Source: a virus. From it: a stretch of 64,000 nt of DNA. Positions 4,416 through 60,224 of this stretch are shown here, one piece after another (the first letter of the stretch is position 1; each line of letters starts with the position of its first letter). The notes under the pieces are model-generated. The model was not told the DNA's origin. It saw only the letters and a list, made by a program, of their open reading frames with translations, and searched no databases. The DNA lies in IMG/VR virus record IMGVR_UViG_3300037308_000350, positions 6,895 to 70,894 of that record. One strand, 5' to 3'. The position numbers and the translations under genes were made by a program.

Positions 4416-4416
4416 T

Positions 4417-5004: not shown

Positions 5005-5014
5005 GGAGAAATAA

Positions 5015-5485: not shown

Positions 5486-5695
5486 ATGAGTTTATCAAAT
5501 TACCTTCAGATTGGAGCAGTAGTAGTCAATGTTCTAATTTTTGTTGTTATAAAATTCAATGATTTAAGGCATCTTACAGCTACAGTCAAGGAATTAAAAG
5601 CTATGAGTATGGATACCAATACAAGACTATCCAGATTGGAAGGTTTTGTGTCTGGTATTTCTGGGAGAAAAAGATATAGTAAGGCAAAAAGATAA
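5486..5695 (+). CDS. small single-TM coiled-coil protein (holin/XhlA-like)
   Basis: Hydrophobic IGAVVVNVLIFVVI followed by heptad helix and basic tail. Confidence 0.4.
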   Translation: MSLSNYLQIGAVVVNVLIFVVIKFNDLRHLTATVKELKAMSMDTNTRLSRLEGFVSGISGRKRYSKAKR

Positions 5696-5702
5696 ATGAC
5701 TT

Positions 5703-5744
5703 TCAGTTGTTTTTCTGAGAAGAGAAAAATAAACCAACAACTGA
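5703..5744 (+). promoter_or_regulatory. inverted repeat upstream of major tail gene
   Basis: TCAGTTGTT (5703-5711) pairs with AACAACTGA (5736-5744). Confidence 0.4.
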
Positions 5745-5794
5745 GGCTTTTTGAAGAAGCTAAAAGTCATTAAGAAATACAGGAGGATATAAAA

Positions 5795-7021: not shown

Positions 7022-7036
7022 AAAATAAGAGTTGCT

Positions 7037-7069
7037 GGAGGGGAGGCGCTCTGGGAGCGCTTCTCCTCC
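7037..7069 (+). terminator. GC-rich hairpin after major tail gene
   Basis: GGAGGGGAGGCGCTC-tgg-GAGCGCTTCTCCTCC; weak U-tract. Confidence 0.55.
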
Positions 7070-7092
7070 TTGCTAAAAGTAAGGTGTAAGGT

Positions 7093-7353
7093 ATGGAAAT
7101 TTTAAAAATAAGCGACAAAGCCTTGGAAGATTTAGTTAATTTCTACTCTCGCAAGCTTGTTGGTAAAGTATGCAAGAGGTTTGAAATTATTAAGAATAAT
7201 CACGACCTTTTAAAAGAGGATGTTAAAGAATTAATTTATGAATCCTTTCGTGATTTTAAGGATGTAGTTGTTGCTTATAATACTGGTAAAGAAGTTCTCT
7301 TAGTTGAGTTCAAAAAAGAGAGCCCAAACCCTGACACCAAAAAAGAGAGTTAG
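7093..7353 (+). CDS. hypothetical protein (tail chaperone region)
   Basis: ORF with AAGG RBS. Confidence 0.6.
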   Translation: MEILKISDKALEDLVNFYSRKLVGKVCKRFEIIKNNHDLLKEDVKELIYESFRDFKDVVVAYNTGKEVLLVEFKKESPNPDTKKES

Positions 7354-7373
7354 GTATTGGGCTTTTTGTTTTT
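7321..7373 (+). terminator. hairpin plus U-tract overlapping the end of the 86-aa ORF
   Basis: AGCCCAA...TTGGGCT with inner CTGAC/GTTAG pairing, then TTTTGTTTTT. Confidence 0.45.
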
Positions 7374-7390
7374 AAGTAAGGGAGGATAAA

Positions 7391-8029
7391 ATGGAACAGA
7401 ACGATTTAACAAGTGAGGAGATTCAAAAGATTCAAGCTAAAGCTGAAAAAGATATTGATTTAATGAAACTTGGAGAGTATCTTCGTGATAATTTAGTGCC
7501 CTTTGAATATAATGCTAAAAAATATAGAGTAAGAATTCTTGACCGTAAAGAAAAAGAAGAACTCTATAAATTTAAAATAAGACGATATGTTGAATTGCTT
7601 AAAGATAAAACTTATACCTTAGAAAATGATTTAATTAAGGTATATAAGGAAAGAGGCATTGATATTGAAAAAATGACTCAAGATTTTATAGACTTAGAAA
7701 AGGAAGAACAAGGAGTAAATTTTAAACTTGGAGAGGCTCTTGCTAATAAATCTTCCGAAGTAGAATGTAATGCTTGGAAAGAACAAATTGAAGATATTAG
7801 GCGTAAGAAATTTCAGATTACCATACAGAAAACTCATCTTTTAGCTTTTTCTTTAGAGCATCAATTAATGATTAATTTATACGAATATAAAACATTTTTA
7901 GGCTTGGAGATTTTAGAAGGCGAAAATTGGGTTAAAGTATTTAAAACATTTGACGAATTTAAGGCTTGCGAAGATGACGTATTAATTAATGAAGCATCTT
8001 CAGCCACAACTTTAATTCAAAATGATTAA
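7391..8029 (+). CDS. tail assembly chaperone
   Basis: Helical, charged protein between tail tube and tape measure; GGAGG RBS. Confidence 0.55.
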   Translation: MEQNDLTSEEIQKIQAKAEKDIDLMKLGEYLRDNLVPFEYNAKKYRVRILDRKEKEELYKFKIRRYVELLKDKTYTLENDLIKVYKERGIDIEKMTQDFIDLEKEEQGVNFKLGEALANKSSEVECNAWKEQIEDIRRKKFQITIQKTHLLAFSLEHQLMINLYEYKTFLGLEILEGENWVKVFKTFDEFKACEDDVLINEASSATTLIQND

Positions 8030-29511: not shown

Positions 29512-29923
29512 AATGGTAGACCCAAAAACATCTATCTTATTAAAGGAAATAACCAAAGAACTCAAACTGGATAAAGAGTGGGTTATTAATTTGGTTCAGG
29601 TGGAGGATAATACTTTATTCCAATTGAAGGAGGATAGAGGGGATTTTACTGTTGTAGATGCCTATGCCATTACTTATATTCTCCCACGTTCCAAGATAGC
29701 GGAAATTTATTTATTTCCTAATAAAGATGACATTAGGGCTCTTTTAGTCCACGAATTACTTCATATTAAGCTCTCTGAGGGCATTTATCAAGCAATTGTA
29801 GATATAGAGCTTAATTCTAATTTAAGCTCCGTAGAGGCAAGAAAACGTCATAATGAGCTCAGAATTGAGGAGCACAGGGTAATTGATTATTTATCTAAGC
29901 AATATCTCTTAAATAACTCGTAA
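29504..29923 (+). CDS. HExxH zincin-like metallopeptidase
   Basis: LLVHELLHI with downstream EEH. Confidence 0.55.
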   Translation: MAKMVDPKTSILLKEITKELKLDKEWVINLVQVEDNTLFQLKEDRGDFTVVDAYAITYILPRSKIAEIYLFPNKDDIRALLVHELLHIKLSEGIYQAIVDIELNSNLSSVEARKRHNELRIEEHRVIDYLSKQYLLNNS

Positions 29924-30360
29924 GCTTTAGGGTGAGTTGGTAGGAAAGGAGGCTGAAATATTAAGGTATATTTTAGACCTTCTTTTTCTATTTTAATAGG
30001 GTATATAGGCGCTTGCGCAAATAAAGCCATCCTTGCAAAGCCATCATAATAACTTTCTCCAGAATTCTTTGTTAACATCCCTTCAGGAAATATTAATACA
30101 GGGCAATCTCCCCTCTTAAGGATTCTTGTAGCCCTCAGAGTATCAATTGTATGGGTTCTTAATAACTTAATTCCTAATGCCTTAGCAGGAAGCCACACTT
30201 TAGGATAAGCCCAATCTCCAGTAATAATGGCTGGCTTCACAGGTAATACTTTGTGGATAACAAATCCATCCAAGAATGAAGGATGATTAGCAACTATTAA
30301 TGATTTTTTAGGAGGATAATCAAAACATTTATGAACAACAGTGATTTTAATAATTCCCAT
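29887..30360 (-). CDS. PlsC-like lysophospholipid acyltransferase
   Basis: VANHPSFLD (HxxxxD) and IFPEG motifs, APIYPI. Confidence 0.85.
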   Translation of the reverse strand: MGIIKITVVHKCFDYPPKKSLIVANHPSFLDGFVIHKVLPVKPAIITGDWAYPKVWLPAKALGIKLLRTHTIDTLRATRILKRGDCPVLIFPEGMLTKNSGESYYDGFARMALFAQAPIYPIKIEKEGLKYTLIFQPPFLPTHPKAYELFKRYCLDK

Positions 30361-31084
30361 TTTTAACCTCCAGTTTTTGCAAGATATAAGACCTTAGTTC
30401 ATCTTGGCTGTATTGTGTATTTATTTTTTTAAAGAATTCATCATACGATATTTTAGGAAAAACTTCCATATTACTTATTAAGCTTACATTATATATTTTT
30501 ACATTAGATTCCTTTAAAAAATCTCTAAAATAAAAGGCTGGGTCATTGCGTTCATAAAAATCTACACTCCCTTGTCCTCTATGTTTATCTGAATAAAAAT
30601 GGGTTTGGGAATGAGGTTTATCATCATTTCCTTTAACAGAGTAACCTTGTTTCTTTTCTTCATTAGTTCTTTTTGTCCAATCATAGCCTAATAAATAAAT
30701 TTCCCCAGAATAATCCATAAGAAACAGAGCTAACCCAATGCTCCACATCCCTGTAAGGGTAGGATTATATATTCCTTTACTTAGTTCTTTTCCTTTTTCC
30801 AGTTGAGTATTACCTTTTAAGAGGATTAAGTTTTTTGGTAAAGGAGCAGGAATAGAACTATTATTGGTATCAAGACCAATAATTAAAGGTTCAGAAGCAA
30901 GGGATATTTTATTATCAGTGTAAGTGCAAGGGTCTAAAAAAGACATAAAAGTTCCTTTAAAGTATCTATACCCAAGGTTACAGACAATAGAAAATTTATC
31001 TGAAATAAAGGACTGTAGACCTTTTTCTATTCCTTCTTGAAGGGATTTACCACCGCCTATAATTATTGCTTGCTTAATTTGCAT
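30347..31084 (-). CDS. Maf/GT42/DUF115-like nucleotide-sugar transferase
   Basis: AIIIGGGKSL..IVCN..LTGMWSIGLA..EIYLLGYDW parallels the IIAGNGPSL..CN..TSG..EIYLSGIDF pattern. Confidence 0.5.
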   Translation of the reverse strand: MQIKQAIIIGGGKSLQEGIEKGLQSFISDKFSIVCNLGYRYFKGTFMSFLDPCTYTDNKISLASEPLIIGLDTNNSSIPAPLPKNLILLKGNTQLEKGKELSKGIYNPTLTGMWSIGLALFLMDYSGEIYLLGYDWTKRTNEEKKQGYSVKGNDDKPHSQTHFYSDKHRGQGSVDFYERNDPAFYFRDFLKESNVKIYNVSLISNMEVFPKISYDEFFKKINTQYSQDELRSYILQKLEVKNGNY

Positions 31085-31223
31085 AGGACAATTTTGTATA
31101 CCTTTTTAAATTCATCTAAGGACATAAATCCATCATTTATTGATTTAATAATACAATCCGCTACTGTTTTAACTGTTCCACGAATATGATTTTTCTGTCT
31201 ATTTCTATGGCTCATAGTTCTCC

Positions 31224-31979
31224 TTATGAAAAGCCTACGCCTTCCCCATATTTAATCCAGCGCTTCATATTATACTTTTTAAGAAGTTTCTCTTGGAATT
31301 CACTATAGGCTCTACCACGATATTTATTATATTCTGTATTTCTATCATTGATGTAATCTACCGCTATATAATAAGTAAAAAACACTTGATAATTAGTTTC
31401 TTTTTTGAGCCTCCAGAACCAATCTTCGTGTTCGCAGAGTTTTAATTCATCATCCCATTTATTTTTTATTAATACTTCTGTTTTGACTAAGAAGAAATTT
31501 CTACATATATCACACTTCTTATATTTAATTCCATTTTCTTCTAAGGTATCATTGGCTAAATTGACAACAAAAGCATTATCTAAGGCTAAATTAAACTCCC
31601 ATTTAACCCTATTGTTAATATCAAAGCCCACAAGACCTCTTTCTGGTTGCGCAGATAAAAACTCAATTATCTTAGGAAGCTTATCAAATAAGGTTTTATT
31701 TAATATAATGCTATCTGCGGTTAAGAGGCAATAATCACAGCCTAATCTGGAGGCTTCTTGAGCTAAATAGTTTCTGGCGTAGGATAAACCGCAATCAAAG
31801 GGTAATCCATAATAAAAAGATTGCTCATTAGATACCATATTTATTTTATCTTCAGTTGGATTTTGGTCTCCTACTAAAAGAATATAATCTTTTGTATAGT
31901 TTGAGACAATACTTTGTAGACTTTTAACCATTAAGTCATCTCTCATAAAGGTAGTATAAAGGATAGCTATTTTAGCCAT
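31224..31979 (-). CDS. GT-A glycosyltransferase (GT2/B4GALNT-like)
   Basis: ILLVGDQ, LPFDCGLSYARN, CDICRNFFL, WDDELKLCEHEDWF. Confidence 0.8.
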   Translation of the reverse strand: MAKIAILYTTFMRDDLMVKSLQSIVSNYTKDYILLVGDQNPTEDKINMVSNEQSFYYGLPFDCGLSYARNYLAQEASRLGCDYCLLTADSIILNKTLFDKLPKIIEFLSAQPERGLVGFDINNRVKWEFNLALDNAFVVNLANDTLEENGIKYKKCDICRNFFLVKTEVLIKNKWDDELKLCEHEDWFWRLKKETNYQVFFTYYIAVDYINDRNTEYNKYRGRAYSEFQEKLLKKYNMKRWIKYGEGVGFS

Positions 31980-33759
31980 TTTGCCAATTACCTCCGTAGG
32001 TAGATGTTAAATAAGCTACAACAGGCATAGGAACATTTACTTTGTAGTGCATAAACACCATTACTTCCTTTGTAGCCCTATTTGATTCTACTATTATTTC
32101 TGTATCTTCTAAGTATTTTTCTAATAAAACTTTTACTCTGGAAAGAGTTTCTTCATTTTTTACGCCTATACAAATTTTATTTGATGTAAGTCGTTTAGTT
32201 TTAATTACTTCCAAACAACTTTGGTTTAGAAGCCAGAATTCTATTTTTTCACTAAATAATATTTTTAATTGAGGATTCATTTCTTGAGGAACAAGAGGAG
32301 GATTTTCTTGTAAAAGACTTTGATTAGGATTGTTATATAACTCATTGGCTAAAGAATTTTTAGATGAAACCATATGTTCAAAATAAAGTTCTCTTCCTTC
32401 CCCTATAGTGAAATTCATTCTAAGATTCCAAGCTTTAGCAAATATCTCCCCAGCGTTTTTCCTTAATCTATATTCATTATAATTTTTATTAGTAAAAGTA
32501 TGGTTATGAATGACGGTCATAGAAGGGCAATAGGCAACCCTATATTTTGAGTATTCTTTTATTCTCAGGAACATATCTGTATGTTCATAAGAAACCTTTA
32601 GGTCTACATTCCAGCGTAACTTTTGGTTATTTAACAATATCTTTGTTTTACAGACAACAAAATTAAAAGTTAAATCACAATAATAAAAATCAATGCCTTC
32701 TATAGATTGAGTTTGCGGATGGGTTAATTCTAAAGGAATATAAAGCAAGATACCATAATTATTTAATAATTTTAATAATCGCTCATAATGCAACGTAATT
32801 CCTTTAGTGTTTTTTATAGAACCTCCAACAAAGCCAACATCATTTAATTTTTGTAGTAAAGTTAAGGCGTGATTAATTTTATTATCTTCACTAAAGACAA
32901 AATCATTATCTCCCCACATAAGATAGGGTTCTTTTACTTTATCTACGAGAAAGTTTCTGCAATAAGATAATCCACAATCAAAAGGAAGATAGTAGTATTC
33001 TATATTATTTTTCTCATAAAATTCAATCATTTCTCCAGAGGGAGCATCTTGGTCAGCAACATAAACTTTGATATTGGGATGGTTTTTCTTAATACTCTCA
33101 ATACACTCTTTAGTTGAGTCTTTTCTAAAGAAATTAATGCAAATAAATCCTATTTCATATTCTTTATTGTTTGCAATATAATCTGTTCCAAGGATACCAG
33201 CAGGGTAAAAACCCTTGTAGTCTTGGTCTATATTTGTCTGAGAGTAGGTGTCAAATTTAGGATTAGGTATTTGCCAGTCTTTTCCATAATGAATCTCTAA
33301 TACCTTTTTATACTCTTGCGGAACATTTATTTTTCTACCCAAGAAAGTTATTTGTTTTAGAGGAAAGAATAATTCATATGGAAATTTAGCTCGCCACTCT
33401 AAAAACCAGTATGGTTTATCTTTTGGTTTTTTGTAACTATAAATATAATAATCCTCATTAATTTTTTCCATAAAAAATATGTCTAATTTATAGGGAAAAT
33501 CCTTGATAGCTACCGTTATTTCTTTTCTTCTGATTCCTACATACCTGAGCTCTTGATTTTCTATTATTTCTTTATCAAAAAGTCTTCTTACCTCCCAATA
33601 ATAAGCTTCATCAATCGCAATATCGGTATCTTTTTCATCATTGGGAAGAAAATCTTTTTCTCTTACTGCGCCTAATAAAGTTCCGCACAAAAAGAAATAA
33701 GGAATATCATTCTTATCAAAAAGGTCTAATAACTTGAATAAAAAGTCTTTATGGCTCAT
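31972..33759 (-). CDS. licD: LicD nucleotidyltransferase-fold domain fused to GT-A glycosyltransferase
   Basis: GTLLGAVRE..LPND..DTDIAI and LDIF (LicD); VYVADQD, LPFDCGLSYCRN, WGDNDFVF (GT). Confidence 0.85.
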   Translation of the reverse strand: MSHKDFLFKLLDLFDKNDIPYFFLCGTLLGAVREKDFLPNDEKDTDIAIDEAYYWEVRRLFDKEIIENQELRYVGIRRKEITVAIKDFPYKLDIFFMEKINEDYYIYSYKKPKDKPYWFLEWRAKFPYELFFPLKQITFLGRKINVPQEYKKVLEIHYGKDWQIPNPKFDTYSQTNIDQDYKGFYPAGILGTDYIANNKEYEIGFICINFFRKDSTKECIESIKKNHPNIKVYVADQDAPSGEMIEFYEKNNIEYYYLPFDCGLSYCRNFLVDKVKEPYLMWGDNDFVFSEDNKINHALTLLQKLNDVGFVGGSIKNTKGITLHYERLLKLLNNYGILLYIPLELTHPQTQSIEGIDFYYCDLTFNFVVCKTKILLNNQKLRWNVDLKVSYEHTDMFLRIKEYSKYRVAYCPSMTVIHNHTFTNKNYNEYRLRKNAGEIFAKAWNLRMNFTIGEGRELYFEHMVSSKNSLANELYNNPNQSLLQENPPLVPQEMNPQLKILFSEKIEFWLLNQSCLEVIKTKRLTSNKICIGVKNEETLSRVKVLLEKYLEDTEIIVESNRATKEVMVFMHYKVNVPMPVVAYLTSTYGGNWQNG

Positions 33760-35063
33760 TATACATCCTCCAAACCTTCTTTGATATAGACGATATGCCC
33801 TGTGAAATCCACATCACAGTAACGAGTAATTATTTCTGCTATCTTATTGGGAGACATCATTTTAGATGAATCTTGATTCGGATTAATATGCTGTTGAAGC
33901 TTTGTATTTACTTTAGCTGGACAAATAACATTTACTTTTATTCCGTGATTTTTAAAGAGAGTAGGAGAATAGGCTTCTACGAAAGAATTTAAGGCGCTCT
34001 TTGAAGCAGAGTAAAGGCTAATGCCAGTTCTTCCATAAGAAGCTGAAGCAGAACCCACAATAACAATATTTCCATTATCATTTAACATAAAAGGCGCTAA
34101 AGTGAGAAAATAAATTATACTCCTAAAGTTTGTATTCATAATATTACAATAATTCTTCAAGATTCCTTCATCATCCCTTGCGTATGTTCCACCACAAAGA
34201 ATAATGCAATCGTATTTATGTTTTGGACAAACAATTGGAGGATTATAATTATTATATCCAAGCTTTTCTAAATTAAGAGAAGTGCGTGAAGGAGCAAATA
34301 CCGTTGCTTTTCCGTTTTCTAAAAGGATTTTTATCTCACTACCTATTCCACCCGAAGCGCCTGTTAATAGAATTCTTTTTCCTATTAGTTTTGGAGTTCT
34401 TTTGACCGCTTCTTTATACTTGATTAATTGTTCCGCATTAAATAAATCCTTTGGGTAGGTAATCTTTATATTGGGATTGATTAAATCAATTGTTTTGGTG
34501 TTAGTAATCAAGTCCGATATTGCGGTAACTCGCCTATCTGATTTAAAATACTTATTGCACAGAAGTTTATAATTGAACCCTTCTGGAGTTTGGCATAGTC
34601 TATATTCTTCTCTATTAAGTGGCTTCTTAACTATGCCCTTTGAATCAATTTGAACTAAAGCGTCTGTTATGGTTTGGGTAGTGCACACTGATTTATGACC
34701 ATTTTTTAACTCTTTTAATATAAGCTTAATAGTCTCAGGAGTCAAAAAAGGTCTCACAGAATCAAAGAATAAAACATACTTGGTATCAGAAGGGCACTCT
34801 TTTAGTCCATTGATAACCGATTGTTTTCTATTAATACCACCTTTAACCATCTTGAATTGACCTTTAACTTTCTCTCTTACTTGTTTCATTATTTTAGGAT
34901 TAGTAACAATAATAATTAAATCTAATTCTTTGGAGGCAATAATGGAGTCTAAAACATACTGAATAACAGGCTTACCATTTAAACTCATTAATTGCTTAGA
35001 TATTTTACTTCCAAATCTTTTTCCTTCACCACCAGCTAATATAATACCAACTGCTTTATTCAT
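33759..35063 (-). CDS. bifunctional IspD/TarI cytidylyltransferase plus SDR reductase (Bcs1-like CDP-alditol synthase)
   Basis: LAGGEGKRFG, GG.NRKQSV..GL, DSVRPF, QTPEGF, NIKITYPKDL; then TGASGGIG and YSASK. Confidence 0.88.
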   Translation of the reverse strand: MNKAVGIILAGGEGKRFGSKISKQLMSLNGKPVIQYVLDSIIASKELDLIIIVTNPKIMKQVREKVKGQFKMVKGGINRKQSVINGLKECPSDTKYVLFFDSVRPFLTPETIKLILKELKNGHKSVCTTQTITDALVQIDSKGIVKKPLNREEYRLCQTPEGFNYKLLCNKYFKSDRRVTAISDLITNTKTIDLINPNIKITYPKDLFNAEQLIKYKEAVKRTPKLIGKRILLTGASGGIGSEIKILLENGKATVFAPSRTSLNLEKLGYNNYNPPIVCPKHKYDCIILCGGTYARDDEGILKNYCNIMNTNFRSIIYFLTLAPFMLNDNGNIVIVGSASASYGRTGISLYSASKSALNSFVEAYSPTLFKNHGIKVNVICPAKVNTKLQQHINPNQDSSKMMSPNKIAEIITRYCDVDFTGHIVYIKEGLEDV

Positions 35064-35305
35064 TATAGTTTCCTCAATAGTAATATAGCGCTATAGATTG
35101 TAGTGGGATAAAATATTGGAGCTCCCTTCGCATCAGTCATAGGATTTCCATTGTAAGAGTATTGAACCCAATCTACTCTTGTGCTATATTGTAAATCAAC
35201 TATTATATTAGACTCTCCAATCAATTGAATATCTGCCTCAAGGAGTTTAAAGTCAGCGTTTTCAAGTATCTTTACCTCATTTATATCTTGGTCTCTAAAT
35301 TTCAT
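35063..35305 (-). CDS. hypothetical protein
   Basis: ORF with GGAGG RBS. Confidence 0.6.
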   Translation of the reverse strand: MKFRDQDINEVKILENADFKLLEADIQLIGESNIIVDLQYSTRVDWVQYSYNGNPMTDAKGAPIFYPTTIYSAILLLRKL

Positions 35306-35306: not shown

Positions 35307-35435
35307 TTACCTCCAAAAGATAAGAGCGTTAACGATTACAAGCAAGAACCCTATAAGCTTGGTTTTAAAATCTACAGCCTGAAAAGAAACTCCTAAATAT
35401 CCCACCAACATCATCCAATAAAATAATTTATACAT
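35307..35435 (-). CDS. 42-aa two-TM membrane peptide not in ORF track (MYKLFYWMMLVGYLGVSFQAVDFKTKLIGFLLVIVNALIFWR)
   Basis: Hand-translated; GGAG RBS, fills the gap exactly. Confidence 0.6.
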   Translation of the reverse strand: MYKLFYWMMLVGYLGVSFQAVDFKTKLIGFLLVIVNALIFWR

Positions 35436-36612
35436 TCTTGGACTCCTTTTTAGGTATAATAGCTCCCATAAAGTATTTATTAAAATTAATATCTTTCTGA
35501 AGGTTGTTTACTATTTTAGCGCTATTCTTAATATGTTTTTCATACTCATAAACGTAATGAACAAAGTTCTTAAACATCATAGTTCTATCAAGAATAACAA
35601 ATGCCATATGTTTAATACTATCCATTTTTAATCTTTCAGCACTAATAAATTTCTTTATAGCTTGAGAGATTTCTTGTTCAGTAAAAGGTCTGGTTAATTC
35701 ATTTTTGATAAGCTCATTAGCTTTTCCTATCTTATGAGCATCTAAGCCTAAATTTACAGTCCACTGAAAAGCTCCTTCCCTATATTCTCCAACATTGAAT
35801 CCAATTCCATAAACTAAACCGTGTTTTTCTCTAATTACTGAGAATAGTCTCCCAGACATATCATTTAGGATTTCTTCCATAAGGCATAACCCAAAGAATA
35901 TTTCCAGTGAAGAATACTTTGTGTTATAGAAGTAATTAGATAACCTCATATTAGCCTGTTGAACATCCTTTTTAATATAAGAGTGAATAACACTACTTTT
36001 AGGAAGTTCTGGAGAAGGAGAAGTTATTCTAATTGGGTCTCCAGTAACACTGTTCTTTCCATCTTTTCCTACATAGAGGTCAACAATTTGGTTATAGTGT
36101 TCATTCCTGAACCATTTAATCTTTGCGCTTGTGATGTCTTTAAGCGTCTCTTTTGTTCCCACTATGGGAAGATAAAGTCCTGATTCTTTATGGAAGATAA
36201 TCTGATTCATTACATCTTCAATAGCTGTATGAGGGTTATCTTCATACATCTTAAGTTCTTGAAGGATTACATTTTTTTCTTTAGCTACATCCTCTTCACT
36301 TATTTTTGAGTTAACAACCATATCGTAAAGAAGGTCTTTAGCTAATTTTTTATACTTGTTATCTATATGAATCCAATAAACCGTTCCCTCATAAGAAGTA
36401 AAAGCGTTAAAGTTACCACCCAGATTCTCAATTTCCTTCGCTATGTCTTGGCTGGTAGGTCTTGTAGGAGTGCCCTTAAAACACATATGCTCAAGGAAAT
36501 GAGATATTCCTTTATAGGAATTGTTTTCATCCCTTGAACCTACAGGAATCATTAAGGCTTGATAACAACTATTACCTTCTTTATGAATTGATATTTTTTG
36601 GATGTTTGCCAT
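35428..36612 (-). CDS. M16 (insulinase-like) zinc peptidase
   Basis: VGSRDE..GISHFLEHMCFKGT, NAFTS, EK.VILQELKMYEDNP. Confidence 0.92.
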   Translation of the reverse strand: MANIQKISIHKEGNSCYQALMIPVGSRDENNSYKGISHFLEHMCFKGTPTRPTSQDIAKEIENLGGNFNAFTSYEGTVYWIHIDNKYKKLAKDLLYDMVVNSKISEEDVAKEKNVILQELKMYEDNPHTAIEDVMNQIIFHKESGLYLPIVGTKETLKDITSAKIKWFRNEHYNQIVDLYVGKDGKNSVTGDPIRITSPSPELPKSSVIHSYIKKDVQQANMRLSNYFYNTKYSSLEIFFGLCLMEEILNDMSGRLFSVIREKHGLVYGIGFNVGEYREGAFQWTVNLGLDAHKIGKANELIKNELTRPFTEQEISQAIKKFISAERLKMDSIKHMAFVILDRTMMFKNFVHYVYEYEKHIKNSAKIVNNLQKDINFNKYFMGAIIPKKESKNV

Positions 36613-36743
36613 TTGAGTCCTCCATTTGAAAAAGGATATAATACACCTTTTTAATATTCTTCCAATTAAACCTTTTGCATAGAATACCCACTATAAATAA
36701 TGGTATTCCTATATAACCAGCTAAGAGCCCTATAAGTATTGCT

Positions 36744-37280
36744 TTAAGATATAGATTCATTTTTACTCCATCGGATATATTTACTCATAATCTCATTTAT
36801 TGTTACAGGTTTAAAATCCCAGACATCTACACCTATATTAATACAATCTACTATATGGTTATCCCTACGGATTCTTTTAAATCTCCAGAGATTGTGAACG
36901 TGCCCTACAAAATTTATGTCATATCTTAAATCAATAAATTCAGGGTTATGAACTAAATTAATCTTTCTTCCACCATAGGCTATTCCTATTTTTTGGATGA
37001 TGGATTTATTACCATTGTTTTTATCGTGATTACCCTGAACAAATATTATTTGACCTTTAAGCTGACTTTTATAATGCTCAAAAAGCTTCCCTTCAGGAGC
37101 TTCTGAACTCTTTCTAAAACAGAAATCCCCAAGAAAGAAAATTGTATCTTCCTCTTTAATTTTAGAGTTCCAATTTTTAATAATGGTTGAATCCATTTCT
37201 TTAAGGCTCTTGAAAGGTCTATTGCAATACCTTATTATATTTTCGTGTCCAAAGTGAGTGTCTGAGGTAAAATAAATCAT
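36744..37280 (-). CDS. calcineurin-like metallophosphoesterase
   Basis: TSDTHFGH, LGDF, GNHD, GHVH. Confidence 0.92.
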   Translation of the reverse strand: MIYFTSDTHFGHENIIRYCNRPFKSLKEMDSTIIKNWNSKIKEEDTIFFLGDFCFRKSSEAPEGKLFEHYKSQLKGQIIFVQGNHDKNNGNKSIIQKIGIAYGGRKINLVHNPEFIDLRYDINFVGHVHNLWRFKRIRRDNHIVDCINIGVDVWDFKPVTINEIMSKYIRWSKNESIS

Positions 37281-37690
37281 AGAATCTCCCTATAAAATAC
37301 TTTATTATCTACTCTTTGCCTCTCCAGAAAACCGTGTTTTACCAGCAATCTTTTATATGTATTTTGAAAATGTCTACCGTGAGCTCTTTTATCAGAAGGA
37401 TATTTTTTATCCGTTAATATATGGCTTATTTCGTGAAGAAGAAGATAATTAGCTACTCTCTCTATATCTTTACTTCCATTGGGAAACCATTTCATACAAG
37501 CGTATTCTGTGTAGCCTTCTTTACATTCTGAAGCATAGCCTTTGAGTCCAAATACCATTACCTTTGTCTTATCCCAGACATAGCAGGTATTTATTCTTTT
37601 AAAGTAAAAAGTGTATTCTTTTAGCACAGGGTATTGCCTCTTATACTTATTCCAGATAGCCTTAATTTCTTTTTTCGTTAGTAATCTCAT
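37277..37690 (-). CDS. SprT-like HExxH metalloprotease
   Basis: LLHEISH...AHGRHF. Confidence 0.7.
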   Translation of the reverse strand: MRLLTKKEIKAIWNKYKRQYPVLKEYTFYFKRINTCYVWDKTKVMVFGLKGYASECKEGYTEYACMKWFPNGSKDIERVANYLLLHEISHILTDKKYPSDKRAHGRHFQNTYKRLLVKHGFLERQRVDNKVFYREIL

Positions 37691-38906
37691 TTGTTATTCC
37701 TATCTTGTTGATTAATGGTAAACACAAGAAGCTCGTTAGCGCAGATATTACAATTAAGGTTTGAAGCCCACATAAAGGTAATAAAGCGCCTCCAGTCCAC
37801 CCAGAAACATTGCCAGCTAAATTACTAACAGAACATAAAAACGCAAATGAAGTTGACTCTAATCCTATAATACATTGTCTTGCCATCCAGTCCATTACAA
37901 GAAGATGTATAAACATACTAACTGAGCTAAATACTATTCCATATACTATGTCTGAAGTTGGAGTAAAATATAAATAAAGAAGCGTAGTAAATGCTCCTAA
38001 GAACACAGACCACTTAAGCCATTGAATAGGATTCTTTATTTTCTTGCTAAATTTAAAATATAAGAAAGCTCCTCCAATTGAAATAATGGAATTAATTACT
38101 CCAAGAATTCCTATAAACATCTTGCTCCAGTGAAATACATCTCTTTCAATATACCAGAGAGGAGTTCCAAAAGAAGGATTAAATTTATATAGGAATAAAA
38201 ATAAACAAGCTACCAAGAAGGCTTTATTTTTAAATAACTTCTTGTAATCTATTTTTTTAGTTTTTAGATTACTACAATTATGGACAGGGTAAGTGCAATA
38301 TTGAACTCCTTCACACTCTACACAATTGCCTTTTCTTTTTTGTTCCTTATATTTTGATGTAAAGAATATTCCAATCAGGTAAAAAGGAATTAATAACAGG
38401 AATCCTATTTGGTAAGAAATATTCTTTTCAGCCAAATATGAGCCTATAAAACCGCTTATGATTCCAGCTACCGTAACAGATACCCATTGAACCGATTGAA
38501 TCTTTCCACAAATATCATATTTCTGACCCTCTACTACCATAATACCATCTACGGAAACATCCCTAAAGGCTGTATTCCAATTGCTAAACATCAAAGCTGT
38601 AATCAATAAGCCAAAAGGAAGTGTAAATAACCCTATAAATAGCGCAAATAAGAGGTCTATGGCTATTGCTAAAAGTATCCAAGTCTTACGAGTCCATTTT
38701 GAGTTGTCTATTATGATTCCGATGAGAGGTTTTACTACCCAAGCGAGAGAAATAAAAGAACTCATAAACATCAATGCTGAGGGAGTGAAATGCAGGGTTT
38801 CTTTTAGGTAATAAGAAAGCGGTGTTCCAGCTATTCCTCCAATACCTTGCAGGAAATAGACAGAACTATTTAGAGCGTAAATCAGGAAAAGATTTTTGTT
38901 TGTCAT
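37662..38906 (-). CDS. MFS transporter, BT1/folate-biopterin transporter-like
   Basis: About 12 TM segments; YFLQG, W.VKPLIG..D, AFRDVSVDG..V, QSVQW. Confidence 0.75.
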   Translation of the reverse strand: MTNKNLFLIYALNSSVYFLQGIGGIAGTPLSYYLKETLHFTPSALMFMSSFISLAWVVKPLIGIIIDNSKWTRKTWILLAIAIDLLFALFIGLFTLPFGLLITALMFSNWNTAFRDVSVDGIMVVEGQKYDICGKIQSVQWVSVTVAGIISGFIGSYLAEKNISYQIGFLLLIPFYLIGIFFTSKYKEQKRKGNCVECEGVQYCTYPVHNCSNLKTKKIDYKKLFKNKAFLVACLFLFLYKFNPSFGTPLWYIERDVFHWSKMFIGILGVINSIISIGGAFLYFKFSKKIKNPIQWLKWSVFLGAFTTLLYLYFTPTSDIVYGIVFSSVSMFIHLLVMDWMARQCIIGLESTSFAFLCSVSNLAGNVSGWTGGALLPLCGLQTLIVISALTSFLCLPLINKIGITNEITNEKRN

Positions 38907-39381
38907 TTAGTTTTATAATTTTAGCGAAACCTTCACTCTTTGTTGGTTTTTCATACATAGCATCAAACTTCTTCCATACAGATTCCCATAGTTTTCTATC
39001 AGGTTGTCCGTGAGGGTCTTTTAGTCTTCTATTAACAGATTTTTTCATTGAATATCTTGGCATCTCTATTACTGTAATTGAATAATTCCATTTTCTCGCC
39101 AAGAAGGAATATCTGGCTCGCATTGATTTAGTTATTCCAACTTCGTCTACTAATATATTTTGTCCTAAGAACATAAAATTATCAATTATATTTAATTCTG
39201 AATCCCAGATAGCTTTTTCTATTTTAGGCTCAAATCTATACTTTCCAGCTCCTATCATATATCTTAAGGAGTCTCTGGAGATAATGACGTGAGAGAAACC
39301 TTTAGAGATAAGCTTCTTACAGAAGGTAGATTTACCTGAGCCTATGTTTCCTATAAGTAAAACAAGTTCTGGTTTATTCAT
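38866..39381 (-). CDS. P-loop kinase, polynucleotide-kinase-like (AAA_33)
   Basis: LIGNIGSGKST, ISRDSLR, ILVD. Confidence 0.85.
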   Translation of the reverse strand: MNKPELVLLIGNIGSGKSTFCKKLISKGFSHVIISRDSLRYMIGAGKYRFEPKIEKAIWDSELNIIDNFMFLGQNILVDEVGITKSMRARYSFLARKWNYSITVIEMPRYSMKKSVNRRLKDPHGQPDRKLWESVWKKFDAMYEKPTKSEGFAKIIKLNDKQKSFPDLRSK

Positions 39382-39853
39382 TTGTTATTTTCCTTTCCCC
39401 GAAGAGATGTATCCTTCTCATATATCCAAGTAAAGCAGATGAGTTTCTAAAATATACTTTTTTCTTCCACCAATCAAGCTTAGATAAATCATCGTGAAGT
39501 AACTTCGGAGACTTCCTAATAACTACTGAATAGTTTTGAATTTCAATAAGTCCATATTTAGGATTAAGGGCTTCTATTACTTTCTTGGCTTCTTCTACTA
39601 AATCTGTTGGAACAGCTATTGAAAAGTAATTAGGATAAATAATAGTCCAATGTAGATGTTTTTCTTTTTTAGTCTCTAAATTACATAAATCCGATTTAGC
39701 GCATTTAACTTCAACTTCGTGAGTATATCCTTTAGGTGTCAATACCAAAACATCTGCCAAATAGCCAGCGTAGCTTACTTCATCAGCGCATAACATTTGG
39801 CGAGTGAATCTAAAATATTCCATTAAAAGTGTTTTAATATAGTAAGCGTTCAT
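39374..39853 (-). CDS. PD-(D/E)xK nuclease (MmcB-like)
   Basis: ADVL..EVEVK..KSDL..NYFSIAVP. Confidence 0.65.
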   Translation of the reverse strand: MNAYYIKTLLMEYFRFTRQMLCADEVSYAGYLADVLVLTPKGYTHEVEVKCAKSDLCNLETKKEKHLHWTIIYPNYFSIAVPTDLVEEAKKVIEALNPKYGLIEIQNYSVVIRKSPKLLHDDLSKLDWWKKKVYFRNSSALLGYMRRIHLFGERKITNE

Positions 39854-40086
39854 TAGCCTATGTTATCAGAATCAATTGCTTGTTTGCCAAATATAATTAT
39901 TGAATGATTTTCTGTATAAATTCCTGTTCCATTACAAACTTTACACTTATTAACACACTTCTTTGGTTTCGTAAAGGCTTTGCAGGTATCACAAGCTACT
40001 CCACGATTACATATTGATTTTGGGTCTATTCCTGAACCATCACAAACCCAACATTGCTGTTTAAATTTCTTATGAATAATCTTCAT
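39853..40086 (-). CDS. DnaJ-type CxxCxGxG zinc-finger protein
   Basis: CWVCDGSG and CKVCNGTG. Confidence 0.65.
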   Translation of the reverse strand: MKIIHKKFKQQCWVCDGSGIDPKSICNRGVACDTCKAFTKPKKCVNKCKVCNGTGIYTENHSIIIFGKQAIDSDNIG

Positions 40087-40667
40087 TATTCACCATCCTT
40101 CGGAGTTACTAAATCTTTAGTTGAGGAAAGATAATCTGCTGTATAAACAATTAATTCCAGAAGGCTATAATCCTTAATATCTTTCTTTGCGGAAGCAGGT
40201 GTCCATAATCCCATATGATTACGGATACATTGATTAATTTCGTAGTATGCTGGCTTATCCGCATCAATATCGTATTGCTTTTTCATTACTTCAGATTGAG
40301 GAATAGAGGCAAAAAACTGTTCTGCGTTAAGGGGATGATTTTCATAATCCTCATAGCTTGTTTTTGCAACAGCAGGATTACCCACTTTGGCTATATCGTG
40401 TAGTATAACAGCCGAAAGGACTATATCTCTTTTCTCATATTCTATTCCCCATCCCACACAAAGTCTATTGGCTAAATATACTGCCCTTTTAACGTGCGTA
40501 ATTAGACCGCCCTCTTTAATTGTGCAAGTAGGATGATACTTTCCAGTAGAAGACGCAGGAGCTTTAAAGAAATAATCAGGAGTCTTCTCTAAGGTATCAA
40601 TAGTCCACTTCTTGATTTCTTCACTTTTAATTAGATTAATTTCATTCATTAAAACATCAGCCTTCAT
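40086..40667 (-). CDS. HD-domain phosphohydrolase (YhaM-like)
   Basis: PAS..YH..GGLITH, LHDIAK, I..HMG, ADY. Confidence 0.88.
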   Translation of the reverse strand: MKADVLMNEINLIKSEEIKKWTIDTLEKTPDYFFKAPASSTGKYHPTCTIKEGGLITHVKRAVYLANRLCVGWGIEYEKRDIVLSAVILHDIAKVGNPAVAKTSYEDYENHPLNAEQFFASIPQSEVMKKQYDIDADKPAYYEINQCIRNHMGLWTPASAKKDIKDYSLLELIVYTADYLSSTKDLVTPKDGE

Positions 40668-40675
40668 ATATCCTC

Positions 40676-41032
40676 CTAAAATTTGTATCTAAAAACGTAT
40701 TCTATTTTATGGTAAGTATCCTTAATCTCAGGTCTGCCAGTGAAGTTAAATATCCTTAAAGTTGCTTTCTTAACTAAGCCATCTTCTACGTCTTTAATTA
40801 CAAAGTAAGGCTGAAAGACATCTATACCTAAAAAGTTATGCCACTCTATTCTTAATTCTGTTTTATTTTGTTCAGTAACAATAGGAGTATTAATATATTC
40901 TTTAAAATCCATTGCTGAAGCTTCATCCATAGGAATTAAAGAAATGCCAAACAAAACCATTCCAAATAATAATATTCCTATGAACCACATTATTGAGACT
41001 TCTAAAAACTCTTTTCTAATATTTTTATCCAT
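40676..41032 (-). CDS. membrane-anchored hypothetical protein
   Basis: N-terminal hydrophobic helix. Confidence 0.55.
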   Translation of the reverse strand: MDKNIRKEFLEVSIMWFIGILLFGMVLFGISLIPMDEASAMDFKEYINTPIVTEQNKTELRIEWHNFLGIDVFQPYFVIKDVEDGLVKKATLRIFNFTGRPEIKDTYHKIEYVFRYKF

Positions 41033-41321
41033 TGTTTTCCAACCATTCTATTATGATTCTTGCGTGGCAATCTTTTGGATAACACCAGCATCCTAATACT
41101 TTGCCTTTTAGTTTTAAAACAGCTCTTTTAAACTGTTCATTATCTTCTATTTTAGCGTAGAAATATTCTTTATACTTCTGTATTACGTCTTCTCTTGAGC
41201 CATCCTTACCAACCTCAAAAGGATTCCCAAAGATAGAAGGTCTTCCTATATAGACATCAAAGGGTTGCCTTTTACAGTGAACAACTTTGTCTTTATATTC
41301 TTTTGGTAAATAAGTTTCCAT
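41025..41321 (-). CDS. DUF4326 protein
   Basis: VYIGRPS.FGNPF..LKGK.LGCWC.P..CHA. Confidence 0.85.
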   Translation of the reverse strand: METYLPKEYKDKVVHCKRQPFDVYIGRPSIFGNPFEVGKDGSREDVIQKYKEYFYAKIEDNEQFKRAVLKLKGKVLGCWCYPKDCHARIIIEWLENNG

Positions 41322-41401
41322 TTTAGCCTTTAAATGTTTGGTAAGCGCAAAACATTATTATCGCTACGATACTTAACCACACTAATATTATTGTTATAAT
41401 T

Positions 41402-42418
41402 TTATTTACCATTTTGTATATAGGCAAAGAAACAGTTTCTTATTTTTTCTTCCGATAATTTTTTAAGCTTTTTAAAATCAATTACAGGATATTTTTCTTT
41501 CTTTAATATATCCCAAAGTTCTTCTTGAATAAAATCATAAAATACTGTATTCATAACTCTTCCAGTATCCTTTTCAGTTAATTGGGGATGATAAGTTTCT
41601 TCCTTTAATTTATCATCATAAATAATACTTCTACATTGAGGGCAAAACCATTCTTGTCCAAAAGTCTCTATCCGAGACCTTAATTCCACTTGACAGCATT
41701 TTGTTAGAGTTAATCCTTGACCATCCCTTATTTTTTCTATTATCTTTTCAATTCTATTCTTCGTTACATATTCTTCTACTAATTTGAGCTCTATATCGCC
41801 CATATTTTTTGGGTCTTTTGTTTGTTGGGCTTCTGCGTAGACTTCATTAATTATCTTTCCCCACTGTTGTCTACCAAATTTATTAACAAAAGCATAGTTC
41901 TTTAATACTATTCCCTCCTGACACGGACTTCCCTTAAAGGAATTAAATTTAAGGTAAGGAGCAAGAGAAATAGGTGTTGGGTTTTGTTCTACTCCTAAAA
42001 CTGGAGAATTCTTTGCTTCAAACATCTTCCATATAGGAAGACAAAGGTAATGGGGAAGATACTTCTGTATTGAAGTATCAAATATATCAAAGAACCATAT
42101 ATTATGGCTGATGCCTTCTGGATATTTTACCTTATGAGGAACAAGCCACTCTCCGTAAAAGATAAAATTAGGGTATTCTTCTACCATTTTTCTTAAAGAA
42201 GGATTCTTTTTAAGATATTCAATTATTCCCCTAAAGTTTCCTCCGTTCTTATCAGAATATATTTCTGTGTTCCTACTGGCGATACATACTCCTTTTTCGG
42301 AATCCCAATATAAGGAAACATTAGCGCCATCTATTTTTTCAAATATATGGACTTCTCCGTTCAGTAATCCCTCTACTTCTTCTTTTCCTATTCTTTCTAC
42401 ATCATCATATTTTCTCAT
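41402..42418 (-). CDS. ATP-dependent RNA ligase (Rnl2-like)
   Basis: EKIDGAN, FYGEW, FDIF, EGIVLK, GKIIN nucleotidyltransferase motifs. Confidence 0.85.
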   Translation of the reverse strand: MRKYDDVERIGKEEVEGLLNGEVHIFEKIDGANVSLYWDSEKGVCIASRNTEIYSDKNGGNFRGIIEYLKKNPSLRKMVEEYPNFIFYGEWLVPHKVKYPEGISHNIWFFDIFDTSIQKYLPHYLCLPIWKMFEAKNSPVLGVEQNPTPISLAPYLKFNSFKGSPCQEGIVLKNYAFVNKFGRQQWGKIINEVYAEAQQTKDPKNMGDIELKLVEEYVTKNRIEKIIEKIRDGQGLTLTKCCQVELRSRIETFGQEWFCPQCRSIIYDDKLKEETYHPQLTEKDTGRVMNTVFYDFIQEELWDILKKEKYPVIDFKKLKKLSEEKIRNCFFAYIQNGK

Positions 42419-43195: not shown

Positions 43196-43675
43196 TTAAT
43201 TAGTGGCTTTATGTTTCCTATTAAATATTGTTAAACCGTTTAAGTGGTCTACTTCGTGTTGAACAACTATAGCTTCAAAACCCTGAACAAATAATTTTTT
43301 GCGCTCTCCATCTTCTTCGTTCTCAAGCAAGATAGTAGTAGACCTATCTGTGATAACGGTTATATTTCCAAAGGAAAGGCACTGTTCGGTTACTCTTACC
43401 TTTCCGTTTCTTTCCAGTATCTTAGGATTAACCAGATTCATTTTAAAGGTATAATCTTCGGTAAGATTACCGTCTTTATCTTTCTTAGCGCCAAGCCTGA
43501 TGATTGAAACAGCTTTATCATAGCCAATTTGATTGGCAGATAACCCTACTGCTGTTTTGTGTTCCTTTATGGTATCCAACAAGTCCTCTAAGATGTCTCT
43601 TAATTCCTTTTTGTCTGTAACTTCCTGAGTCTTCCTGCTAAGTTCTTTTCTGTCTGTTACTATTTTTCTCACCAT
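43196..43675 (-). CDS. def: peptide deformylase
   Basis: GLSANQIG, EQCLS, QHEVDHLNG. Confidence 0.93.
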   Translation of the reverse strand: MVRKIVTDRKELSRKTQEVTDKKELRDILEDLLDTIKEHKTAVGLSANQIGYDKAVSIIRLGAKKDKDGNLTEDYTFKMNLVNPKILERNGKVRVTEQCLSFGNITVITDRSTTILLENEEDGERKKLFVQGFEAIVVQHEVDHLNGLTIFNRKHKATN

Positions 43676-46282: not shown

Positions 46283-46569
46283 TTATTCTTCTTTCGTTTT
46301 GGAGGATTCTTAGTAGGAAGCTTATAAGTCTTCTCCAATTCATTCATCATTAAAACCATTTTTTCAAACCTACCATCAAAAATCTTATCCATAAGCGTCT
46401 TACAATTATCACAAATTTCTTTTTCTTTATTTATTGTGTTAAATTGTTGCTGATTCAATCCAAAAGGCTTTTGCTGTATATAATTTAATTCTTCTTCTGA
46501 GACTATGCTTAATATCCACTTTATTCCCTTAATCGGCTGTGAACATAAATCACAAAAGCTGACTTTCAT
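46279..46569 (-). CDS. zinc-binding hypothetical protein
   Basis: CDLC and CDNC. Confidence 0.6.
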   Translation of the reverse strand: MKVSFCDLCSQPIKGIKWILSIVSEEELNYIQQKPFGLNQQQFNTINKEKEICDNCKTLMDKIFDGRFEKMVLMMNELEKTYKLPTKNPPKRKKNK

Positions 46570-47083
46570 ATTTCTCCTTATTTAGGTTTAAAAAATATGA
46601 ATTAACTTTTTTATTAAAAATAAATTTTTTAATTTGGTTTAATCGTTTTTTACTTTTAATATAAGGAGTTATTTTTGTTAATAACGCTAAAATTTCGCCT
46701 AAATTATTTACTTGCCACGTTAAACAACAATTAAATTTTCCATTACTATAAACTTTACCAAGATAAAGAGTTTTATAAATATAGTGTAAAGCGCTTGGGT
46801 CTTTTTGAGATATAATAAATTTATAATAATAGTATACTTTATTTTTAACAACTTTTTTATATACTCCAATTGACCCTTCTCCCTCCCAAAATCCAGTAAA
46901 CCATAAAAGGAACTCTTTTAAAGAGTTTAACTTATGCAAAGCTTGAAAATAATATCTTTGAGTAAAATAAAAATTTCTACATTTTATACATCTGTTATGA
47001 TTACCAAAAGTTATCAACTTTCCACAATCACAACATCTGTTGTTTATTTTTTCTACCCTTAATTTATAATAATTTTTATCCAT
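46550..47083 (-). mobile_element. free-standing LAGLIDADG homing endonuclease with N-terminal Cys cluster
   Basis: WFTGFWEGEGSI, ISQKD..L..I..L..G.V; very AT-rich. Confidence 0.8.
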
Positions 47084-59906: not shown

Positions 59907-60224
59907 TTATTTTCTCTTCTTGCGAAGTAATCTACGTCTCCTTCGCCATTTTAAGCCATAATTTTTTGCTACTTTAACTAAATATTTATCAAATAAAATT
60001 GCTAAAACGTCTCCTGAAGCATACCCAATTGCATATGAAAATATAATCCAGATATTATGTAAGTTTTCAATAACGGAGCTTATTACATAATACCAAATAA
60101 AAATCCCAATAAAAGCTATTATAAATGAAGCTAACTTCTTGTTGCCCTGTAAAAATTTAGTGTTAAGAGATAAAACAAAGCTTTCTACTATTCCCACAGC
60201 AAACAAGATGAGCGCTCTTAACAT
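59907..60224 (-). CDS. small 3-TM membrane protein (DUF5698/UPF0316-like)
   Basis: KKLASFI.AF..IFIW..YAIGYASG. Confidence 0.6.
   Translation of the reverse strand: MLRALILFAVGIVESFVLSLNTKFLQGNKKLASFIIAFIGIFIWYYVISSVIENLHNIWIIFSYAIGYASGDVLAILFDKYLVKVAKNYGLKWRRRRRLLRKKRK

Follow-up and report, generated by a model that had tools for sequence, protein, structure and literature searches.

The window analysed here is a 64-kb stretch of DNA (positions 6895-70894 of the 73.5-kb IMG/VR record IMGVR_UViG_3300037308_000350) from an uncultured phage, and the only sequencing run that contains it is a freshwater metagenome. On its minus strand lies a cluster of six coupled open reading frames (ORFs), p1 to p6, which is predicted to make a cytidine diphosphate (CDP)-linked alditol and to build a phospho-alditol glycan from it (Table 1). 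The positions, order and mostly overlapping arrangement of the ORFs matched exactly those given in an earlier, sequence-only reading of this DNA (the original prediction). The overlaps at the junctions are 1, 8, 22 and 14 nt, the 22 nt being the overlap of p4 with the start of p5, and there is a single gap of 8 nt. As the ORFs overlap, the genes are considered to be translationally coupled. The 80-aa ORF upstream of p1, p0, is possibly the first gene of the operon and p4 may not be a real gene; neither gave a family match or a homolog in any of the related loci examined. The GC content and the total avoidance of certain restriction sites within the cluster are the same as in the rest of the window, indicating that the cluster has long been resident in the phage.

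Table 1. Features of the window, with positions counted from its first nucleotide
Feature	Position	Strand	Size or content
Glycan cluster	29887-35063	minus	six coupled ORFs
p0, stop overlaps p1 start	35063..35305	minus	80 aa
p1, IspD-SDR fusion	33759..35063	minus	434 aa
p2, LicD + GT-A fusion	31972..33759	minus	595 aa
p3, stand-alone GT-A	31224..31979	minus	251 aa
p4, basic ORF, doubtful gene	31063..31215	minus	50 aa
p5, MptE-like/Maf/CstII/WaaZ-like fold	30347..31084	minus	245 aa
p6, PlsC/LPLAT-family acyltransferase	29887..30360	minus	157 aa
Structural arm	~1-29.9 kb	plus	tape measure, 2261-aa protein, DUF2793 proteins, LamG-repeat fibres
Replication/host-directed arm, converges on structural arm		minus	PolA, RecA, primase-helicase, SbcCD-like, peptide deformylase; also RNA ligase + HD + kinase, BT1 MFS transporter, M16 peptidase
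Host-type genes	35428-38906 and 43196-43675	minus	M16 peptidase, full-length BT1-family MFS transporter, peptide deformylase
RNA-repair-like genes	38866-42418	minus	AAA_33 kinase, HD phosphohydrolase, RNA ligase
LAGLIDADG homing endonuclease ORF, free-standing	46550-47083	minus	between SbcD-like gene and PolA
Amidoligase_2 gene	60224-60928	minus	

The domains that had been proposed for the cluster from the sequence alone (IspD, adh_short, LicD, Glycos_transf_2 and Acyltransferase) were all recovered by hidden Markov model (HMM) searches above the curated Pfam cut-offs. In p1, whose cytidylyltransferase half spans residues ~1-218, Pfam IspD covers residues 7-214 (1.7e-35, 123 bits against a cut-off of 27) and adh_short covers a classical short-chain dehydrogenase/reductase (SDR) half at residues ~228-434 (1.7e-20, 73.7 bits). 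The motifs AGGxGxR, KQ, GGxxRxxSV, DSVRP, QTPxGF and KIT are intact in the IspD half, as are TGxxxGxG (TGASGGIG) and YxxxK (YSASK) in the SDR half. Sequence matches of p1 in the PDB were IspD, the TarI ribitol-5-phosphate cytidylyltransferases 6xhp and 4jis, and human ISPD (4cvh). Based on sequence, p1 is therefore predicted to be a bifunctional ketose-phosphate reductase and CDP-alditol synthase.

The architecture of p1 is that of Bcs1/Acs1 of Haemophilus influenzae (compare TarI/TarJ and animal ISPD), with an IspD-family N-terminus and an SDR C-terminus; Bcs1 reportedly has the cytidylyltransferase N-terminal and the SDR C-terminal (Follens 1999; Zolli 2001). The phage protein is ~26-31% identical to cellular fusions and up to 45% identical to homologs with Bcs1-type names in the JGI data, three of which (P0037, P0083 and P0106) are automatically named 'ribitol-5-phosphate 2-dehydrogenase / D-ribitol-5-phosphate cytidylyltransferase'. 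Considering the Bcs1-type architecture together with these automatic names, the product is probably CDP-ribitol. The choice of ribitol in the original prediction was nevertheless an inferred one, and two scores count against it. The best NCBIfam match of p1, the IspD equivalog, scored 141 bits against a cut-off of 181, and the TarI model for ribitol-5-phosphate cytidylyltransferases (NF001183) scored 87 against 166. Because the IspD domain falls below both cut-offs, the identity of the alditol is not fixed by them. In addition to these scores, p1 differs from Bcs1/Acs1 in being phage-encoded and replaceable by other donor genes.

The second protein, p2, joins a LicD domain (residues ~1-190; PF04991, 1.4e-9, 38.8 bits against 22.6) to a CAZy GT12-like glycosyltransferase (GT) domain of the GT-A type (residues ~200-455; Glycos_transf_2, 4e-10, 40.3 bits against 23.3). 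When a profile of 22 p2 homologs was compared with the PDB, the GT-A part matched human B4GALNT1 (9h6j, 4.9e-21 over 240 residues, 189-429) and the LicD part matched the catalytic domain of FKRP (6kaj, 1.6e-4, residues 10-158). Both catalytic motifs are invariant among the 22 homologs: the LicD DxD (D41, D44 and D46) and the GT DxD (D284-N-D286). FKRP is a ribitol-5-phosphate transferase, and the LicD domain of p2 is predicted from its sequence to be an FKRP-like phospho-alcohol transferase. The best NCBIfam match of this domain was the glycolipid cholinephosphotransferase Mf1. Like FKRP/fukutin, pneumococcal LicD1/2 and Mycoplasma Mf1, p2 has an invariant DxD and is paired with a CDP-alcohol synthase; it differs from them in that its LicD domain has no membrane anchor and is fused to a B4GALNT1-like GT-A domain and a degenerate LicD-like region. 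The latter comprises the C-terminal ~100 aa, which repeat the C-terminal motif of LicD (internal repeat, E 6e-4) and are possibly a degenerate second LicD-like domain. Pfam returned nothing credible for this region in p2 or its homologs.

For p3, which gave no Pfam match, the proposed glycosyltransferase identity was borne out by its relationship to the GT domain of p2, of which it is a paralog (BLASTP, 27% identity, E 2e-21). Its orthologs are found directly downstream of LicD-GT in related loci, at 35-43% identity. The DxD position of p3 reads A-D-S, and this A-D-S is conserved among the orthologs; the degenerate motif makes the activity of p3 uncertain and is a further point against the pathway proposed below.

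The strongest evidence that the cytidylyltransferase and LicD work together comes from related phages. Eight contigs were read in detail, and a profile scan of IMG/VR gave 44 loci, which were analysed with HMMs built from our own alignments; scans of IMG/VR with p1, p2 or BT1 as single proteins returned nothing. Metagenomic homologs of p1 and p2 were found in dozens each, at 40-55% identity and repeatedly on the same contigs. Orthologs of p2, p3 and p5 were present in 5/5 of the relatives first examined, and the survey of synteny found the combination of LicD-GT, GT paralog and MptE-like gene (p5) in at least 15 loci, mostly with the genes in this order. All of these come from a single phage lineage, identified by the SbcCD-like genes that its members share, and its contigs cluster at 86-102 kb. 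A nucleotidyltransferase-type gene is always directly upstream of LicD-GT in the related loci, although its kind changes. The IspD-SDR fusion occupies this position in the window and in four relatives (L002, L007, L058 and L097), whereas L003/L057, L006 and L056 have separate IspD, SDR and YjbQ genes. L005 carries an SDR, DUF2284, a TagD-type cytidylyltransferase (CTP_transf_like) and an extra LicD. In L054 the donor cassette (4042-8004) consists of an adenosine phosphosulfate (APS) kinase, a sulfotransferase, a 586-aa NTP_transferase-aminotransferase fusion and an extra LicD. The fusion in L054 resembles bacterial fusions for the cytidylyl activation of phosphonates (aminoethylphosphonate), and by analogy the cassette suggests that some phage glycans could be sulfated and possibly phosphonylated. 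Since the relatives keep p2, p3 and p5 and exchange the donor cassette, the head group appears to be a variable decoration.

The same survey narrows what had been described as a complete six-gene pathway, as conservation is limited to LicD-GT, the GT paralog and the MptE-like p5, and the acyltransferase and the 50-aa and 80-aa ORFs are private to the present phage. The conserved trio is not a strict core of the lineage either: two terminal-repeat-complete relatives (105 and 110 kb, with SbcC 38-39% identical) have neither p2 nor p5, so the module is dispensable.

Apart from this lineage, a second architecture, GT-LicD-GT in single proteins of ~850-870 aa, is common in other IMG/VR contigs (L064-L067, L070, L075, L081, L083, L087, L088, L092 and L095). 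Among 185,579 species-representative genomes, the full LicD-GT fusion was found in one, on a phage-like contig in an Asgard metagenome-assembled genome (MAG). Two contigs of the lineage, JAEOSD010000017.1 (L003/L008) and JBQSJX010000190.1 (L054), are binned in MAGs labelled Promethearchaeota and Helarchaeota. Both have the gene order of the phage lineage, with SbcCD-like genes, then the cluster, then the structural arm (with a LamG protein in L003). The Asgard binning is probably wrong and the 'Asgard' LicD-GT proteins are probably viral. An archaeal host was rejected on the basis of this gene order and because members of the lineage, the window included, encode a bacterial-type RecA and peptide deformylase.

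The fifth protein, p5, gave no Pfam match and thus has no membership by sequence in PF01973; within its family, 6/57 members match PF01973 (E <= 0.01) and one matches CST-I. An AlphaFold model from the single sequence was unusable (pLDDT 36), and a model from an alignment of 57 sequences (pLDDT 94.3) was used instead. Foldseek against the PDB matched this model to the Maf glycosyltransferase 5mu5 (5.9e-5, query TM-score (TMq) 0.55), to CstII (8e-4) and to the sialyltransferases ST6GALNAC2 and ST8SiaIII, all of which are enzymes using CMP-linked donors. The best match in the AlphaFold database (AFDB) was WaaZ (TM 0.61-0.62), and matches among the Atlas structures were MptE-like clusters (TM 0.67-0.70), WaaZ_KDO_III and TagF-MptE fusions. 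The earlier description of this protein as 'Maf/GT42-like' therefore holds at the level of the fold. His162 and Asp135 are near-invariant in the family. On the strength of the model, we predict that p5 is a transferase and that its donor is a cytidine nucleotide.

Homologs of p5 are fused to, or adjoin, sulfotransferase, DUF707 and GT2 genes; a 257-kb phage contig has one of them, fused to a sulfotransferase and beside a GT2 gene, within its tail module. Inteins (Intein_splicing and LAGLIDADG_3) were seen in the p5 homologs P0190, P0218, P0228, P0252, P0267 and P0301, apparently at two or more insertion sites, and LAGLIDADG_3 was recorded in the LicD-GT homologs P0136 and P0154. Glycan transferases are unusual hosts for inteins, and their presence here implies that the genes are conserved and under selection.

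The last gene, p6, encodes a protein with Pfam Acyltransferase (PF01553, 1.6e-10, 41.3 bits against 23), the motifs HX4D (NHPSFLD, H26-x4-D31) and FPEG, and no membrane anchor. Its Atlas structure has a TM of 0.79 to lysophospholipid acyltransferase (LPLAT) models. It is predicted from its sequence to be a minimal PlsC/LPLAT-type acyltransferase and has no homolog in the related loci examined. A search of PHROGs gave nothing for p2 to p6.

The genes could instead serve separate pathways, with the IspD domain of p1 acting as an auxiliary of the methylerythritol phosphate (MEP) pathway and/or p5 acting as an MptE-type pterin pyrophosphokinase together with the BT1-family folate/pterin transporter of the major facilitator superfamily (MFS), encoded 2.6 kb upstream. 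That the IspD equivalog is the top NCBIfam match of p1 would agree with this, but p1 is under the cut-off of that model and is fused to an SDR, which plays no part in the MEP pathway, and the relatives carry non-IspD cytidylyltransferases at the p1 position beside LicD. Similarly, p5 does belong to an MptE-like superfamily, and the Methanocaldococcus jannaschii hydroxymethyl-dihydropterin pyrophosphokinase (HPPK) 8sd5 is among its fold matches; however, the fit to Maf, WaaZ and CstII (TM 0.55-0.62) is better than that to HPPK (TM 0.32-0.44), and the fusions and neighbours of p5 homologs also count against this reading. The overlapping, translationally coupled genes also speak against separate pathways, which we regard as very improbable. 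A functional link between BT1 and the cluster, as exporter or in pterin metabolism, was unsupported, as only 5 of ~17 loci have BT1 close to the cluster.

Taken as one pathway, the gene products would act in the cytoplasm of the infected cell, soluble and phage-encoded throughout. The SDR half of p1 would reduce a ketose phosphate, most likely D-ribulose-5-phosphate with NADPH, and the IspD-like half would join the alditol phosphate to CTP, giving a CDP-alditol, most likely CDP-ribitol; this step is modelled on the domain architecture. The GT-A domain of p2 and p3 could add two hexose or N-acetylhexosamine (HexNAc) residues from host UDP-sugars. The LicD domain of p2 would then move alditol-phosphate from the CDP donor to a sugar hydroxyl to form a phosphodiester, a step that the synteny supports. 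Judging from its fold, p5 might add a further unit from a cytidine-linked donor, which could be host CMP-Kdo (3-deoxy-D-manno-octulosonate), a nonulosonate or the CDP-alditol itself, and p6 may O-acylate the product in the present phage only. We consider the chemistry from CDP-alditol to phospho-alditol glycan likely, because the motifs are intact, the domain order is of the Bcs1 type, the LicD domain is FKRP-like and the synteny is conserved with exchangeable donor cassettes. The central idea of the original prediction, that the phage makes its own CDP-alditol for transfer by LicD, is thus well supported.

With regard to the acceptor, our first, if tentative, choice falls on at least one virion protein of the phage itself, slightly ahead of the host envelope. 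The enzymes are soluble: none of the proteins p0 to p6 has a membrane segment (no 19-residue hydrophobic window >1.6), and no Pfam families of priming phosphoglycosyltransferases, flippases, polymerases or ligases, such as belong to seroconversion and envelope glycan systems of the Gtr, Wzx/Wzy and TagF types, were found in the cluster or its flanks. A virion acceptor is favoured by this lack of a lipid-carrier priming enzyme, flippase and ligase. It is also favoured by the apparently lytic nature of the phage; no integrase or resolvase was found in the 73.5-kb record. The enzymes are 40-50% identical across phages with GC contents of 26-45% and differing restriction landscapes, which is more readily explained if the acceptor travels with the phage. 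Other points in favour are the position of the module next to the fibre genes, the p5 homolog inside a tail module, and the inteins in p5 and p2 homologs. There is also a precedent in mycobacteriophages, whose own soluble GT2 enzymes glycosylate the virion (Freeman et al. 2023, as cited in PMC12619734). In what is described there, these enzymes resemble ours in being soluble GT-A proteins, dispensable and encoded near structural genes, and they differ in that CDP-alditol, LicD and sialyltransferase-like parts do not figure in that account and that virion modification is a hypothesis for the present phage. The combination of the chemistry set out above with a virion-protein acceptor is given a probability of about 0.4.

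Several observations weigh against a virion acceptor, and some of them favour one in the host envelope. The operon points the same way as the replication and host-takeover arm, opposite to the structural genes, and it shares this orientation with the host-directed BT1 transporter, M16 peptidase and peptide deformylase. Characterised LicD, WaaZ and CstII enzymes mostly act on lipid-linked envelope glycans, and it is established that LicD1/2 and Mf1, WaaZ and CstII, the characterised kin of three of our enzymes, use such acceptors. The adjacency of 'Ser/Thr-rich' fibre genes was used in the original prediction to suggest virion acceptors; the fibre genes are indeed adjacent, but the richness is only mild (S+T 19-22%, with no S/T tracts) and is weak evidence for an acceptor. 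Finally, the absence of p2 and p5 from two complete relatives makes the module dispensable, as is usual for accessory genes of host interaction.

The same chemistry could instead be directed at a host envelope glycoconjugate during its assembly on the cytoplasmic side of the inner membrane, such as the core of lipopolysaccharide or lipooligosaccharide (LPS/LOS), an undecaprenyl-linked capsule, O-antigen or teichoic-type unit, or a glycolipid. The cell surface would be repainted for superinfection exclusion or against the loss of progeny on debris. The best matches of the LicD domain and of p5 (Mf1 in NCBIfam and WaaZ in the AFDB), the PlsC-type acyltransferase in the cluster and the finding that 5 related loci have BT1 no more than 10 kb from the cluster would be in line with this, and bacterial surface glycans typically vary in their head groups. 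A surface reading was also proposed by Benler et al. for a phage ispD/licD pair (PMC8008677). On the other hand, the seven proteins lack membrane segments, the cluster has no priming phosphoglycosyltransferase, flippase, polymerase or ligase, and only a minority of loci have BT1 nearby. The phage looks lytic, and the surface-converting phages known to us are temperate. The phages that retain the trio differ in GC content (26-45%) and in site avoidance, implying different hosts, and an envelope acceptor would consequently need to be very conserved among those hosts. We regard an envelope acceptor as possible though doubtful.

If the virion-protein acceptor is followed further, lytic aquatic phages of ~86-102 kb could coat their virion proteins with a phosphodiester glycan resembling teichoic acid or matriglycan, using an ISPD/FKRP/B4GALNT-like set of enzymes and, through exchange of donor cassettes, varying the head group between ribitol-phosphate, another CDP-alcohol-derived group, possibly aminoethylphosphonate, and sulfate. 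As a joint claim this is speculative and, taken as a whole, unlikely; if true, such a coat would be a viral counterpart of the variation of surface antigens in bacteria.

Phage DNA is a third conceivable acceptor. The glycan would then hypermodify bases, as happens in Yersinia phage YerA41, SP-15 and Carin-5, where an adduct with oligosaccharide and phosphate takes the place of most thymine. YerA41_151 is an IspD-SDR fusion that shares 26.6% identity with p1 over 95% of its length; genes for KpsC-like transferases, SDRs and a glycerophosphodiesterase surround it, and the DNA polymerase gene is adjacent. The operon of the present phage is at the end of its replication arm, and homologs of its genes contain inteins, which are typical of DNA-metabolism genes. 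The avoidance of restriction sites argues strongly in the other direction. As had been noted earlier, it is real and extreme: in 64 kb there are no copies of GCNGC, GGNCC, CCNGG, GGCC, CCGG, CATG, CTAG, GTAC or TCGA and one of GATC, where 38-248 copies of each of these ten palindromes, which involve all four bases, would be expected. AGCT (345 sites), ACGT and GANTC occur at expectation and GCGC is three-fold over-represented, and related phage loci avoid different subsets of sites. Such strong selection against ten sites suggests, from composition, that the DNA is exposed to restriction, which is not expected where DNA is globally hypermodified.

The argument against a DNA acceptor was strengthened further by the absence of a ThyA-family pyrimidine hydroxymethylase (PF00303), a mark of T4-like hmC and SP-15/YerA41-like hmU systems, from the 73.5-kb record and from five cluster-bearing relatives, including a complete 96.5-kb genome, while control genomes were positive. 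In thymine-hypermodified phages, DNA polymerases fused to UDG are >900 aa long (PMC13697223); the PolA of the present phage has 587 aa and is annotated without an extra N-terminal (UDG) domain. The genome and its relatives also assemble from ordinary shotgun metagenomes, whereas the DNA of YerA41, Carin-5 and SP-15 resists sequencing as well as restriction. DNA is therefore an unlikely acceptor, and we give this possibility very little weight. In YerA41 ~70% of thymine is replaced by a ~1 kDa adduct containing sugar, phosphate and a 184-Da repeat of unassigned structure (PMC9023294, PMC12686479). By our own arithmetic, 184 Da is the residue mass of tetritol phosphate (C4H9O6P, 184.08). A donor of the CDP-erythritol or CDP-threitol type made by YerA41_151 (MW570730.1 93990-95357), which is encoded near KpsC-like transferases using cytidine-linked donors, would fit this unit, and the present analysis offers a lead for the phosphate-containing repeat on YerA41 DNA.

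Bacterial walls, bacterial capsules and animal dystroglycan carry phospho-alditol decorations, but a phage pathway of this type is not known to have been characterised. Our literature search found no characterised phage pathway for CDP-ribitol, although the novelty of the cluster is lower than was first claimed, considering the IspD-SDR fusion of YerA41, the at least 44 IMG/VR loci with LicD-GT relatives, and the neighbouring phage ispD and licD genes already described (PMC8008677). The latter belong to some 'Flandersviridae' gut phages, in which adjacent ispD and licD are inserted as a pair into the replication module of Bacteroides myophages; the two genes, neither of them, according to the authors, earlier seen in phages, were read separately, for isoprenoid and teichoic acid, and not as a joint CDP-alditol pathway (Benler et al. 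2021, PMC8008677). That pair is similar to the present cluster in having neighbouring IspD- and LicD-family genes that are not in all members of the group. The present cluster differs in its SDR fusion, LicD-GT fusion, GT paralog and MptE-like transferase, its swappable donors, and its occurrence in a freshwater/marine lineage.

The module is conserved in an uncultured phage lineage with interchangeable head-group donors, and it yields a testable prediction: that a single protein of 434 aa produces CDP-ribitol and that the LicD-GT fusion transfers phospho-alditol. It also leads one to ask which target a lytic phage would decorate with phospho-alditol glycans. A virion target would add a new kind of modification to those known for virions, and a target on the host surface would amount to a new strategy for a lytic phage.

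The glycan cluster is the final operon of the minus arm, which converges on the structural arm (Table 1). CheckV estimated the completeness of the 73.5-kb record at 42%. Since the cluster-bearing relatives that are complete or nearly so measure 86-102 kb (the one with terminal repeats 96.5 kb), the record is probably about three quarters of the full genome. No tRNAs, searched for as a clue to the host, were found, and none of 50,697 phage records matched the cluster by megablast. Promoter and terminator scans were uninformative, with fewer matches than in shuffled sequence.

Other genes of the minus arm were also noted. The kinase, HD phosphohydrolase and RNA ligase genes are close together and resemble a set for tRNA or RNA repair. 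The BT1, M16 peptidase and peptide deformylase genes, which are of host type, recur near the glycan cluster in several related loci. A free-standing LAGLIDADG homing endonuclease ORF separates the SbcD-like gene from PolA, and the Amidoligase_2 gene has a counterpart in relative L056, where it is upstream of the IspD gene.

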